A DNA stretch of 39,306 nt from an uncultured Gammaproteobacteria bacterium. GTDB lineage: Bacteria; Patescibacteriota; Microgenomatia; Levybacterales; UBA12049. Where the stretch lies: contig CAYWVK010000002.1 of the NCBI GenBank assembly GCA_964461865.1, positions 1-39,306 of the forward strand, written 5' to 3'. The notes below the pieces were generated by a model. The model saw only the letters and a program-made list of their open reading frames with translations, was not told the origin of the DNA and did no database searches. A program made the translations under genes and the position numbers. The stretch's first letter is position 1; each line of letters starts with the position of its first letter. Of this stretch, positions 27,773 through 31,540 are shown in pieces.

Positions 27773-29598
27773 TAAAGCCTGATGAGATGAAAATTAATGA
27801 AGAAGCTAATGTTTATCATGATGCAACTTTGGATAATTGGGGTAACGCATTTAACTTCAGCCACGAAAAAGGATTAGCAGAATGGTTAAAAAATTCAATT
27901 GATGCTTACTTACGCATTAAGTTTGCTGATAAAGATCAGCATGTTATTTTTAGATTCGCTGAAGGAAATAGCTCCAATCCTTCAACGATTGAATGCATTG
28001 ATTTTGTCGGAATGACACACACGGATATTCAAAAGGCTGTTAAATGGTGGGGAGATCCAAATGCAGCAAGCAGAGGCTTAAACGTAAGAGTTTATGGTGG
28101 TCATGGAAACGGTGGTAAATTTTACATGCGCCAAATGTTTCGTTCTTCAAGGTTTATAACCTATAGAGACGGAAAGCTAAATATATTCGGTTTCAATGAA
28201 AATAAAAAATATGGCTTTGCAGACGGTTTTGAAGACAAATCAGTCTCCTTGGAAGACGCGCTTAAAATTGCAAATATTGATATCTCAATTATTCCCCAAA
28301 ATTTATTAGTTATAATGCAAGCTGGTAAAATAGGTTTTACTTTAGTCAGAGGTATTCAACCCAAGCGAATTGTCGGTCACGCATTGCCTGTCAATCAGCT
28401 TTGCGAGAAACTGAAATACCATCCTCAATCCAGAAGGCCTCTTAAATACTGTAACGTATCTGTTATTTATAACGGAAACTTAATATTTAAGAATCTTAGA
28501 ATGGAAGAAATTGAACCTTTAAAAGAGTTTAAGGATCCTTTTGTTTTTGAAATACCTGAATTCCTTATCGATAGCGATAATCATAATAAAAAAATTGAAC
28601 TCGCGAATAAAAAATATCAAAAAGGTCAATTAATTTTACGAACTTCTTCATTGCCTTTCGGTCGCGGAGGAAGAAAGCCAGAGTTAAATTGCGTGGATAT
28701 TATTGGAGAAATAGGTGTTATTGCTTCATATAAGATGAGCGAAATAGGTCCGTTAAGATATTATCCTCAGGCACAATCAATATATGGAGAATGCAAATGC
28801 CCGATTTTAGAAGATCCTGAATATGATTCTGTTCAAAACGACAGAGATAAGTTGGCTGAAAATGATAGAACACTGGTTTTACGCAAATGGATAGCCAGTA
28901 AAATCGATGAGGTAGGGTTTAAGATAGCGGATTTGGAAGAAAAAGAGGAGCAGAAAAAAATTAATCAGACAACGGATGAATTCAATCAAATGTTAAATAA
29001 GTGGAAGGATCAATTTATGTCCAAATTGTTTACGGAGATATTGGGCGGTCCCGGAAAGGGCAGATCTACGGGTGGAATCGGAGATGAAGGTTCAGGAGGA
29101 GGAAAAAATGAAAATTCAGAGACTAAAGGAGGATTGGGTTCTGGAAAAGGAGAAGGAGGAGGAGAGGGGGATGAAAAGAAAAAAGGATCTGCGATGCCGA
29201 GGGTTTTACTATCCGAAAGTGAGGATCCTGATTTTCCAGGCGTAATTGTGACATTCGCAGAAAGACATTTTGCTGTTGAACAAAGACCGCAGGATGTATC
29301 AAGGGGTATATTTTGGATAAATCGTAATAAACCCATGGCTAAAAAGATACTTGATAAATACGGTGTTGATTCAGTTCAATGGAGAAATTACCTCTTTCAG
29401 AGATACGTAGACATTTTTATAATTTCCGCCATAGATAGAAAGGCTAAGTTAGAAGGCGGAAGTTTAACACCCGATATAATTGATACTGAAATCTTTAAAG
29501 TCGTCTCAGTAGTTAACGACAAAGCAATTGTTGATTTGGAGCAATTTTTAGTAGGAGAAAAATTTAAAACTACTAACAGCTCTGAAAATGAAGAATAA
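27769..29598 (+). CDS. GHKL/MORC-type (HATPase_c_3-like) ATPase with Gly-rich linker and unknown C-terminal domain
   Basis: Bergerat-fold motifs: N-box AEWLKNSIDAY (ExxxNxxDA), degenerate G1 IDFVGMT, and G2 box GGHGNGGK (GxxGxGxK). A low-complexity GGPGKGRSTGGIGDEGSGGGKNENSETKGGLGSGKGEGGGEGD linker precedes the last ~150 aa. Confidence 0.7.
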   Translation: MIKPDEMKINEEANVYHDATLDNWGNAFNFSHEKGLAEWLKNSIDAYLRIKFADKDQHVIFRFAEGNSSNPSTIECIDFVGMTHTDIQKAVKWWGDPNAASRGLNVRVYGGHGNGGKFYMRQMFRSSRFITYRDGKLNIFGFNENKKYGFADGFEDKSVSLEDALKIANIDISIIPQNLLVIMQAGKIGFTLVRGIQPKRIVGHALPVNQLCEKLKYHPQSRRPLKYCNVSVIYNGNLIFKNLRMEEIEPLKEFKDPFVFEIPEFLIDSDNHNKKIELANKKYQKGQLILRTSSLPFGRGGRKPELNCVDIIGEIGVIASYKMSEIGPLRYYPQAQSIYGECKCPILEDPEYDSVQNDRDKLAENDRTLVLRKWIASKIDEVGFKIADLEEKEEQKKINQTTDEFNQMLNKWKDQFMSKLFTEILGGPGKGRSTGGIGDEGSGGGKNENSETKGGLGSGKGEGGGEGDEKKKGSAMPRVLLSESEDPDFPGVIVTFAERHFAVEQRPQDVSRGIFWINRNKPMAKKILDKYGVDSVQWRNYLFQRYVDIFIISAIDRKAKLEGGSLTPDIIDTEIFKVVSVVNDKAIVDLEQFLVGEKFKTTNSSENEE

Positions 29599-31540
29599 TC
29601 CGATTACAAATTTGGTTAACTTATTTTTTAACCAATCCCCAAAAGAAACAAACACAAATAATAATATGAAAAGCATAATGACCGATGATAAATATTATTC
29701 AGAAAATGATCCCATTGAGGTTCTTTCATTAAATTCCCAGATAGAATTTATATTGAAGGGAAGAAAAATAGATACAGTGGGTAAATTATATAAATGCAAA
29801 AGAAAAAGATTAAATAAAATAAAATTTATCGGTCCAAAATCCCTTAAATATTTAATGCGAGTTAAAAGAGAGATCCATATTAATAAATTAGATTCGGATG
29901 ATAACGGTCAAAAACAACATTTGAACGAAAATGATAAGTTATCTAAACAAGAGAAAACATCTCAAAATTTATCTTATATAGACTTAAGCAACATAGATTT
30001 ACTCCCATCAATTTCCAGAGATGATGACATCAGTGCCTTGGGATTACCAACCAGACTGGAAAATAGCTTGCGAAACGTAGCCTTATTCACCATAGGAGAT
30101 TTTTATGATTACAACGACGAAGCATTATTTAAAGTCAGAAATATAGGTTATAAAACGTATCCTTATTTATTAAAAATTAAAAAAGAATTAGAATCAAAGT
30201 TTGATTTAAAAGCTCCTGAAAAACCAGAGAGGGAAGACAAAAATAAAGATAAATTGAGAGATGATAATCCTGAAGAAACATTAGAAAAACTTCTAAATAA
30301 AGTTAATTTGTCTGGGGGCGATCCGATAGAAACACTCGGTTTGCCAACAAGAGTGGAGAATGCCTTAAAAGCTGCAGGAATAAAAACTCTTAATTTATTA
30401 TTCTCGTTATCAGATAAAGAAATAATTGAAGGTAAAAACTTAGGATATAAGTCTCTTGAATTAATTAAGTATTACAAAAATTCAATTGAGAAAGGAGTTG
30501 TTTCGGGTATTAACGACGAAGAGTTAGTCGATTTAACTCTTAACAGATGTAGGGATGATAGAGACAAGACAATAATAATAAAAAGATACGGTTTTTATAC
30601 GGGTGAGAGAGATACTCTTGAGGAAATAGGGAAAAGCTTAAATATAACCAGAGAAAGAGTGAGGCAAATTCAAAATAAAATGCTATCCAGAATGAGACAT
30701 CCTAGCACGAAGTCACGCGAGCGTTTAAAAGAATTAATGATTAAGGCCTGTTTTGATAATGGCGGAATGATAACGGACAGAGAAGCGGATAAATTAATTC
30801 CGCCTCTGATTAGAAATTCTTCGATTGACGGAAGTTCTTTTCTTGATCTTCTCGCTGATATAGGATGGATTCAAAAACATGGAGCTGGTGATGTATTTTT
30901 CTATTCACCGAATAGCACAGACTATGTATTGTCAGAACTAATGGAAAAGATTATATCCGTCCTTAAAGTAGCAAAACAATTATTAAGCTTAGATGAAGTT
31001 TTAGAGCGGTTATATTATACGGGTGATAAGAATTCAATAATGCGAGACATTGTGGCTAAGTGTTGTGTTTCCGATCCTAGAATCGAGCAGGCGGGAGAAA
31101 AATACACTCTATACTCGATTCCAGGTCATAAGCAAGATAAATGGGCTCATTATATGTCTAAAGTACTAGAGCAATCAGGCGAGCCCTTGCACTTTACAGA
31201 AATAGCAGGAAGAGTTAATGATCTAATAAGTAGCTCAGATCAGAAGATTGAACAAAGAAGAGTCCACGCAATTTTAATACAGAATCACCAGTTTGCGCAT
31301 ACGGGAACATGGGGTATGTATGGATTGACTAAATGGGGACTTAGAAAGGAATCTACGTTGGATCTCGCAGAAGAATATATAAAAAAAGCAGGCTTCCCAG
31401 TTCATTTGGATCAAATTTATAATTATGTAAGTAAATATAAATATACTAAGCCCAATAACATTGCGAGTATTCTAAATAACGACAGATTTATAAAGATGGA
31501 AAGAGGCATGTATTGGCTAAAGAATGTAAAAACAAATTAA
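29588..31540 (+). CDS. Chimeric protein: three RpoA-CTD-like HhH modules + sigma-70 region 4 + two or three HARE-HTH-like modules
   Basis: Alpha-CTD-like: [23 protein letters not shown]...[34 protein letters not shown]...[13 protein letters not shown]; weaker [22 protein letters not shown]...[12 protein letters not shown]. Region 4: [41 protein letters not shown] (compare this window's Rpo[42 protein letters not shown]). HARE-HTH-like: [18 protein letters not shown]...[18 protein letters not shown] and [17 protein letters not shown]...[15 protein letters not shown]. Overlaps the upstream gene by 11 nt. Confidence 0.7.
   Translation: [650 protein letters not shown]

Follow-up and report, generated by a model that had tools for sequence, protein, structure and literature searches.

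A predicted DNA-reading adaptor built from RNA polymerase-type modules accompanies a MORC-like ATPase in a candidate defence cassette

What is the role of a protein that joins modules of three different RNA polymerase (RNAP) subunits and is encoded directly behind a GHKL ATPase? This question is raised by p650, a 650-residue protein encoded at 29588-31540 (+) of contig CAYWVK010000002.1 (assembly GCA_964461865.1), of which we analysed a stretch of 39,306 nucleotides, here called the window. A sequence-only reading had recognized in p650 three copies of the C-terminal domain of RNAP alpha (alpha-CTD), sigma region 4 and two or three delta-like HARE-HTH units, and had proposed that the protein could dock on RNAP or promoters, or serve as a decoy or sensor for phage factors that hijack RNAP. 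Our analysis points instead to p650 as the DNA-recognition subunit, either adaptor or sensor, of a multi-gene restriction-modification-like defence cassette, a reading based on sequence comparison to which we assign a probability of roughly 0.5.

The open reading frame (ORF) lies at exactly the coordinates first proposed, and its start overlaps the stop of the ATPase gene p609 by 11 nt. Pfam searches and an AlphaFold2 (AF2) model (20-sequence alignment as input, pLDDT 75) resolve p650 into a string of eight nucleic-acid-binding modules, comprising three alpha-CTD units, sigma region 4 and four winged helices. In the model, three helix-hairpin-helix (HhH) bundles occupy residues 40-95 (unit 1, 29705-29872, +), 145-204 (unit 2, 30020-30199, +) and 245-301 (unit 3, 30320-30490, +). 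The Pfam RNA_pol_A_CTD profile matches in three stretches (E=7.7e-25), the best of which (residues 246-294) lies in unit 3, directly N-terminal to the sigma module; the units also match one another in an internal repeat BLAST (E 6e-10 to 3e-12), confirming the count of three, and R156, N159 and G187 of unit 2 are invariant across the close family. The sigma-70 region 4 module follows at residues 310-375 (30515-30712, +), with its helix-turn-helix (HTH) modelled at 310-369 and TRERVRQ as its recognition helix. Sigma70_r4 covers residues 323-371 (E=4.2e-12), and the predicted closeness to the window's own RpoD (encoded at 22971-24053) was borne out by BLASTP (48% identity over 62 residues, E=4e-14). 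Foldseek superimposed the modelled segment on SigA region 4 structures with a root-mean-square deviation of 1.4-2.0 A.

Four consecutive winged helices complete the protein and match the 4xWH array of SelB in a Foldseek search with the AF2 model. The first (WH1, residues 377-441, 30716-30910, +), defined by AF2 secondary structure and alignment, carries a family-specific motif of eight residues followed by ..GW and shows no relationship detectable by hhalign. The second (WH2, residues 448-508, 30929-31111, +; AF2 and hhalign) bears the motif C..DPRIE, is weakly HARE-like and is weakly similar to WH4 (hhalign 25.6%). WH3 (residues 514-589, 31127-31354, +) and WH4 (residues 590-644, 31355-31519, +) are homologous HARE-HTH repeats (local hhalign, probability 92.5%, E=5e-7), and the Pfam HARE-HTH profile (PF05066) matches residues 519-578 of WH3 at E=2.3e-5 and 25.2 bits, just below the 25.9-bit gathering cut-off. 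Scored against profiles, the alpha-CTD and Sigma70_r4 modules are thus clear and HARE-HTH is marginal in Pfam, and "two to three" HARE-HTH units was a fair count, with two units solid and a third weakly similar.

Although p650 has the single domains alpha-CTD, sigma region 4 and HARE-HTH in common with RNAP alpha, sigma and delta, it was rejected as a version of any of these subunits. As in sigma-70 factors, a region 4.2 HTH with a -35 recognition helix is present, and TRERVRQ is conserved at 83-100%. A sigma factor also has region 2, for core binding and -10 recognition, and usually region 3, but Pfam detected no region 2 or 3 in p650 or in any of 58 diverse partners (the corresponding proteins of related loci), and NCBIfam models for RpoD and RpoS scored 44-52 bits against cut-offs of 354-779. 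For alpha, only the CTD matches and the N-terminal domain, responsible for dimerisation and core assembly, is absent (TIGR02027, 61.6 versus 227.8 bits). True delta (RpoE) has one N-terminal HARE-HTH followed by a long acidic tail, whereas the HARE-HTH units of p650 are C-terminal and tandem, and WH4 closes the sequence without an acidic tail. Nor does p650 resemble a controller (C) protein, a single-HTH dimer of ~80-100 residues that binds an operator ahead of its own gene, as it has 650 residues and eight modules and is encoded by the last gene of its operon.

The 58 partners, which share only ~14-20% overall identity, show which parts of this architecture are fixed. Pfam found Sigma70_r4 in 57, RNA_pol_A_CTD in 35, Bac_DnaA_C (DnaA domain IV) in 16, HARE-HTH in 18 (E<=1e-3, best 9.5e-11) and an HNH nuclease in 2-3. 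The order is constant, running from alpha-CTD through ~30 residues to sigma-4 and then the winged-helix array, with the alpha-CTD/sigma-4 spacing fixed, and either alpha-CTD or DnaA domain IV precedes sigma-4. In Solirubrobacterales the whole protein is replaced, as the slot upstream of the p208 gene (the small partner of p609, described below) holds a 164-223-residue winged-helix protein of the Mrr_N type. Mrr_N is the domain found at the N terminus of Mrr, an enzyme that depends on methylated DNA. One such protein from a Solirubrobacteraceae locus (L067:6679-7350) shows a further match, to the N-terminal domain of SeqA (E=3.5e-6). The exchange of alpha-CTD for DnaA domain IV, and of the entire protein for Mrr_N, indicates that the common denominator is DNA binding and not RNAP mimicry. 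The C-terminal array is family-specific, with 788 representatives (50% clustering, E<=1e-3), 45 of them close relatives, and many proteins of 330-400 residues match the tandem HARE pair alone.

Residue-level constraint within the borrowed modules leads to the same conclusion. The E. coli numbering and the roles of these residues are well established: the sigma-4 recognition helix contacts the -35 hexamer, and the tail from K593 to P601 makes activator and anti-sigma contacts. Across the 58 partners the recognition helix is nearly fixed (T583 83%, R584 97%, E585 95%, R586 100%, R588 95%, Q589 100%), and the tail is poorly kept (K593 50%, R596 26%, K597 29%, R599 26%, H600 17%, P601 16%). Conservation across 68 alpha-CTD units is highest in the 265 determinant, which binds DNA (R265 85%, N268 63%, L270 91%, G296 97%, K298 68%, S/T299 84%), and positions of the protein-contact determinants 261 and 287 vary. 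Such a pattern is expected of modules kept for DNA binding, rather than for mimicry of RNAP protein surfaces, and it fits the earlier suggestion of docking on promoters, given that the -35-contacting residues R584-Q589 are 95-100% kept and the 265 determinant is the most constant part of alpha-CTD. Because the DNA contacts are conserved and the protein-contact surfaces are not, we favour a DNA-reading adaptor over a decoy.

Evolutionary rates distinguish p650 from its ATPase partner. In pairwise comparisons p650 diverges faster than p609, with identities of 60% versus 87%, 46% versus 70% and ~25% versus 50%. The accompanying Dcm cytosine methyltransferase switches family among lineages (86%, 45% and 23% identity to that of the window), while p609 stays 50-87% identical. 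A specificity or sensor subunit would be expected to evolve in this way, fast and beside a conserved p609.

Adaptors of this type are not confined to one kind of ATPase. In searches seeded from p650, close homologues were found paired with at least three different GHKL families. At two loci (L005/L103) the homologue is accompanied by a 623-residue protein, a 289-residue protein and DUF6339, and at another (L102) by proteins of 670 and 206 residues; the 623- and 670-residue partners show GHKL motifs I-III by inspection, yet lack a match to the hidden Markov model (HMM) of p609. More distant relatives lie elsewhere, two of them in BREX-like settings. In a metagenome-assembled genome (MAG) of Nodularia sp. 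(L093:7001-9757), a 918-residue protein with sigma region 4 and a p650-type winged-helix array is encoded between BrxC and PglZ, followed by BrxL; the slot it occupies is normally that of the PglX methyltransferase in type 1 BREX. At L105:3688-6309 an 873-residue alpha-CTD/sigma-4/winged-helix protein stands directly upstream of BrxP (PAPS reductase + DUF4007, PADLOC 1e-110), with a 1231-residue SspC/BrxC-like ATPase further downstream, the gene content of a BREX type 4 / Ssp-like phosphorothioation cluster. At a third locus (L112) such a protein lies just downstream of a Trypsin-nSTAND1-WD40 protein, with a small ORF between them.

Two known defence proteins share part of this architecture. 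In type 2 BREX/Pgl, PglW has a homologous block: its positions ~790-990 (PADLOC) can be aligned to alpha-CTD plus sigma-4 in p650 relatives, with E-values as low as 4e-15. PglW is a 1400-1600-residue enzyme with NERD nuclease, tandem kinase and C-terminal iSTAND parts, encoded in a cluster with PglX, PglY and PglZ, whereas p650 stands alone and is paired with a GHKL ATPase; its own PglW match is local (positions 800-976), and Pfam detected no kinase or nuclease domains in it, so p650 was rejected as a PglW. The alpha-CTD-like domain and winged helices of PglW have been interpreted as a DNA-binding/sensing hub (PMC12839542), and a standalone p650-type protein is not described in that paper. MzaA, of the MZA candidate anti-phage system, likewise has a sigma-70 region-4 module (NF041931 E=5e-13, PADLOC 1.3e-9). 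An MzaA would match NF041931 / PDLC02203 over its full length and be accompanied by Mza partner genes. The match to p650 covers region 4 only (50-70 residues) and scores 48.7 bits against a cut-off of 800, and PADLOC found no Mza-family match among the neighbours of p650; p650 is therefore not an MzaA. A GHKL ATPase, of MutL-like type, is likewise part of the MZA system. A literature search on MzaA gave nothing relevant.

The gene upstream of p650 encodes p609 (27769-29598, +), whose sequence places it outside every profile we searched. Pfam, PADLOC and PDB sequences gave no meaningful match in single-sequence or profile searches, none of the 120 p609 homologues listed has a Pfam match, HATPase_c_3 included, and NCBIfam gives a weak local match over 80 residues to BbrUII/HgiDII restriction enzymes (E=0.006). 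The Bergerat-fold motifs I-III are nevertheless invariant (E38..N42..D45, D78..G81, G110-G-H-G-N-G-G-K117), and an AF2 model (pLDDT 77) retrieved MORC2 (1.9e-11), SMCHD1, MORC3/4, Hsp90/TRAP1 and GyrB with Foldseek. The model consists of a GHKL domain, an S5 transducer, a long helix, a Gly-rich disordered linker and a C-terminal domain with no family assignment. Motifs and predicted fold together uphold the identification of this protein as a GHKL ATPase. Motifs I-III and the S5 transducer define MORC/paraMORC proteins, and with both present p609 is, as modelled, a MORC-like GHKL + S5 ATPase, or, in the terms of Iyer, Abhiman and Aravind (2008), a 'paraMORC'. The families described so far, paraMORC1-5, are marked by features such as a HATPase_c_3 match or a family-specific C-terminal nuclease or TIR; neither the Pfam searches nor the unassigned C-terminal domain of p609 points to one of them. 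Prokaryotic MORC ATPases have been described in restriction-modification operons with Dcm and Vsr, with a proposed role in DNA looping (PMC2292703). They resemble p609 in their GHKL + S5 core, intact ATP-binding motifs, distinct C-terminal extension, operon setting beside a C5 methylase gene and vsr, and patchy spread. In contrast to the paraMORC operons, the p609 operon has no SF2 helicase or recognised restriction endonuclease, and the constant partners of p609, p208 and the sigma-4-type adaptor, are absent from that account ('sigma' occurs 0 times in PMC2292703). The paraMORC3 of Shedu type (VcSduA, PMC12137116) carries a fused PD-(D/E)xK nuclease, which p609 lacks.

Directly upstream of p609 is p208 (27146-27772, +), its small and invariant partner, present in 45 of 48 loci with long flanks (defined below). 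It combines an N-terminal winged helix, weakly similar to MarR/HTH_45, with a conserved C-terminal region (D139, D141, R151, T152, R160) for which no known relatives were found; searches of PDB chains with p208 likewise gave no meaningful match. Neither NCBIfam nor PADLOC has a model for p609 or p208.

Both genes belong to a tight operon, s77-p208-p609-p650, which is preceded in the window by tRNA-Asn, vsr, dcm and a promoter, in that order. The vsr gene (25297-25704, +) encodes a very-short-patch endonuclease (Pfam 1.1e-21; TIGR00632 112.6 bits, over the cut-off), and dcm (25697-26803, -) a C5 cytosine DNA methyltransferase (Pfam 1.7e-75; TIGR00675). The first operon gene, s77 (26910-27143, +), encodes 77 residues with no family assignment and no PADLOC or NCBIfam model; homologues of 71-80 residues occur in loci of the Candidate Phyla Radiation (CPR) and Nitrospirota types, where s77 is kept as first cassette gene (42 of 83 loci overall). 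Relatives of s77 were also seen in distant variants on viral contigs and an Ensifer plasmid.

The cassette extends well beyond the CPR. The p609 family comprises more than 816 clusters at 90% identity, and when one genome per species was scanned, p208-p609 relatives turned up in at least 183 species of more than eight phyla (80 loci were drawn from these species hits), among them CPR, Terriglobia, Nitrospirota, Verrucomicrobiota, Planctomycetota, Myxococcota, Solirubrobacterales, Ignavibacteria, Elusimicrobia and Clostridia. All are MAG or metagenome sequences save a distant adaptor-less variant on the Ensifer adhaerens plasmid pCTYH.Ch1_3, and some MAG taxon labels are perhaps mis-binned, such as 'Gammaproteobacteria' on CPR-like loci. 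We tabulated 83 non-redundant loci with locally built HMMs, 48 of which have at least 3.5 kb on both sides (full-flank loci). Besides p208, these 48 loci contain a sigma-4 partner in 34 (71%), an Mrr_N-type partner in 6 (12%), dcm in 35 (73%), vsr in 27 and s77 in 25, where calls of absence are limited by the sensitivity of the ad hoc HMMs.

Gene order differs among lineages around this shared content. Independent CPR lineages with p650 homologues (38-60% identity) keep the order dcm, vsr, a gene for 71-75 residues, one for 208-217, one for 609-610 and p650, so that the partner gene immediately follows p609; in Verrucomicrobiota, Planctomycetota and Ignavibacteria it is directly upstream of p208 and encodes 615-1027 residues. 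Terriglobia have a 554-583-residue alpha-CTD/sigma-4 protein divergent from p208-p609-dcm-vsr, and one locus (L012) has a 711-residue adaptor downstream of p609, followed by Fic, with no dcm nearby. In many phyla the adaptor gene overlaps or adjoins the GHKL gene. This cross-phylum synteny strongly backs the coupling of p650 to a GHKL ATPase and a methyltransferase that had been proposed from the window alone. Homologous CPR cassettes are often found among terminase, ParB-methylase, serine recombinase, FtsK and LexA genes, a setting that looks prophage-like or like that of an integrative and conjugative element (ICE), and the cassette's other neighbours vary (HNH, Fic, NOV_C, trypsin-like protease, PIN/MazE pairs), as is typical of defence islands. 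IMG/VR yielded only six distant p609 variants, none with an adaptor, and in phage genomes p650 matches were at the level of region 4 only.

Taken together, these data suggest how the cassette might work. In this reading, about an even bet as a whole, p208 and p609 are its invariant engine, with Dcm and Vsr as a self-marking arm in most lineages. The alpha-CTD/sigma-4 dyad would read an A/T-rich minor groove and the adjoining TTGACA-like hexamer, that is, promoter-type DNA, and the tandem HARE units and other winged helices would interrogate the modification state of the DNA. HARE-HTH domains have been predicted to discriminate modified DNA in restriction contexts (PMC10853773). On DNA without the Dcm mark, p650 may recruit or license an ATP-driven dimeric clamp of p609, together with p208, and the clamp could block the DNA or pass it to an effector that varies by lineage (Vsr, HNH, Fic or protease). 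p650 would also sit on the consensus -35 and UP-element promoter of its own operon; autoregulation is thus a likely additional role, with the operon promoter a natural p650 site.

Several observations weigh against this reading of p650 as a DNA-recognition subunit. The members of the cassette are known from sequence and predicted structure alone. No nuclease was recognised in p609 or p208 by Pfam, PADLOC, NCBIfam or PDB searches, which leaves the restriction step undefined; a classical Type II restriction-modification system would have a recognisable endonuclease matched in specificity to its methylase. The idea that HARE-HTH reads modified DNA comes from computational prediction too (quoted in PMC10853773). 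In about 17% of the 48 full-flank loci, and in the variants from Ensifer and viruses, no adaptor was detected, so that the adaptor is dispensable for the core and p650 is not an obligate core component. Because dcm is absent from 13 of the 48, with HNH or Fic genes in its place, the methylation reading cannot be universal. Genes in the tabulated loci were called crudely as longest ORFs, and many loci come from phylogenetically related MAGs. Finally, the divergent adaptor gene of Terriglobia and the consensus promoter of the window would equally fit a pure transcriptional regulator.

Such a regulator, though unlikely, is the alternative that survives best. In this case p650 would be a giant analogue of a C protein that acts on the -35/UP region to time or limit expression of the cassette and plays no part in target recognition. 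The head of the operon is in keeping with such a protein, with a perfect sigma-70 consensus promoter, TTGACA-N18-TATAAT (26870-26899, +), and an A/T-rich region upstream. Strong promoters recur at this position: those with at most two mismatches lie upstream of s77 in 19 of 40 loci, compared to 28 of 223 control genes (genes with an upstream gap of at least 100 nt), and a perfect -35 in 13 of 40 compared to 15 of 223, an enrichment that is suggestive only, as the loci share descent and are not phylogenetically independent. The divergent adaptor of Terriglobia and the lineages that keep the core triad without an adaptor point the same way. However, eight DNA-binding modules in 500-1000 residues are far more than operator binding requires, and in most lineages the adaptor start overlaps p609 or p208, suggesting stoichiometric co-production. 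HNH nuclease fusions among the partners, and homologous adaptors within BREX-like clusters and PglW, also fit poorly with regulation alone. In addition, the promoter spacer contains an inverted repeat, ATATG-N4-CATAT, that looks operator-like and, judged by its sequence, suits a small dimeric regulator rather than p650. Similar palindromes (CTACAT..ATGTAG) were seen in promoter spacers of three other loci (L002, L014, L018).

A more speculative version of the DNA-reading adaptor, which we hold to be improbable, makes the dyad a portable 'promoter reader' (UP element + -35) that brings the MORC-like, ATP-driven clamp to promoters on DNA without the resident cytosine-methylation mark and thereby silences transcription of invading DNA instead of cleaving it. 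Silencing would explain the nuclease-free core and, if true, would provide a prokaryotic counterpart, possibly a forerunner, of methylation-linked MORC silencing in eukaryotes.

Slightly less probable still is a Dcm-linked repair or epigenetic module with no role in defence, in which MutL-like p609 would aid Vsr in very-short-patch repair of T:G mismatches and p650 would direct it to DNA that is methylated or mismatched, possibly in connection with transcription. In its favour, no neighbours are commoner than Dcm and Vsr, the searches recognised no restriction nuclease, and E. coli MutL interacts functionally with Vsr (PMC2292703). Fused Dcm-Vsr proteins (562-571 residues) follow directly after the p609 homologue at L042:9896-11602, L050:9959-11674 and L054:9867-11555, which are Planctomycetota- and Myxococcota-type loci. 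A repair function does not readily account for the 13 full-flank loci that have HNH or Fic genes and no dcm, for close homologues in prophage- or ICE-like regions and beside toxin-antitoxin pairs, for a patchy distribution with apparently horizontal transfer across phyla, or for related adaptors in BREX-like systems.

The decoy or guard of the sequence-only reading, in which p650 shows the RNAP surfaces attacked by phages and their binding or modification triggers the GHKL ATPase, has the poorest prospects. T4 AsiA and Alt/ModA classically target sigma-4 and R265 of alpha-CTD, the residue equivalent to R265 is kept at 85%, sigma-4 of the close CPR family is very RpoD-like down to its RHPS tail, and Foldseek retrieved sigma-4 bound to the phage G1 ORF67 protein (4g6d, TMt 0.81); but the wider family keeps the DNA contacts only, the phage- and activator-contact surfaces (K593-R603 with the RHPS tail, and 261/287) being unconserved with K593, R596, K597, R599, H600 and P601 at 16-50%, and this pattern, together with the DnaA-IV and Mrr_N substitutions, disfavours a decoy, as do the system's passage across phyla with very different RNAP sequences and four winged helices that have no RNAP counterpart except delta, a Firmicutes-type subunit from a phylum barely represented among the loci.

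What the DNA-reading adaptor adds to earlier work can be delimited. Already known are paraMORCs in Dcm/Vsr-linked operons, the HARE-HTH prediction, and sigma-type HTH or alpha-CTD-like modules in defence proteins. Aravind and Iyer reportedly noted in 2012 bacterial HARE-HTH proteins that combine features of RNAP alpha and sigma factors, and are said to have done so without a link to a GHKL/p208 cassette, the DnaA-IV or Mrr_N alternatives, or residue-level constraint. Our literature search found no paper joining GHKL, sigma-70, anti-phage and Vsr, and the remark that p650 is not a characterised protein was correct as far as experiments go. What appears to be new is the delineated s77-p208-GHKL-adaptor cassette, which lies outside Pfam, NCBIfam and PADLOC coverage, along with the alternative adaptor modules and the retention of promoter-recognition residues. 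The cassette is widespread yet unnamed in defence catalogues and domain libraries, from CPR to Acidobacteriota, Nitrospirota, Verrucomicrobiota, Planctomycetota and Actinomycetota, and a puzzling mosaic of RNAP modules gains a concrete, testable role. More broadly, promoter-recognition modules of RNAP, as well as DnaA domain IV and Mrr_N, seem to have been borrowed repeatedly as plug-in readers of DNA in modification-based immune systems, BREX-like ones among them. Should the MORC-like ATPase work without a nuclease, it would offer a tractable bacterial model of how MORC ATPases link DNA-methylation state to DNA compaction or silencing. The Ensifer variant (L101, NZ_CP118613.1 59223-62548) might give experimental access to the core: its trio of a 75-residue, an 800-residue GHKL-like and a 229-residue p208-like protein, all annotated as hypothetical, is distant and adaptor-less and resides on a conjugative plasmid of a cultured host.

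The surroundings of the operon contain further features. Downstream of p650, a membrane-anchored trypsin-like protease of the HtrA type with N-terminal transmembrane helices is encoded at 31995-33320 (+; Pfam Trypsin_2 1.4e-25). It is a recurrent optional neighbour, with homologues directly following p650 relatives in the P0007 contig and at L005/L103 and L020, and it may be an accessory effector. In PADLOC it weakly resembles the protease modules found in RT-protease and Avs1b. Between p650 and the protease, positions 31598-31963 encode a 121-residue protein with a coiled coil and a C-terminal zinc ribbon, which has weak YabA/ZapB-like coiled-coil matches and no homologue in any of the fetched loci. 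On the other side, tRNA-Asn (24669-24741, +; ARAGORN) forms the left edge of the island and separates the dnaG-rpoD operon from vsr, placing the cassette at a tRNA-flanked position; no integrase was seen within the window, unlike the recombinase-bearing surroundings of homologous CPR cassettes. The window itself is chromosomal and of CPR origin, carrying dnaA, leuS, ruvB and dnaG-rpoD, and the closest homologues are in Microgenomates-type CPR MAGs. With dnaA at 4179-5522 (-), it probably lies near the chromosomal replication origin.

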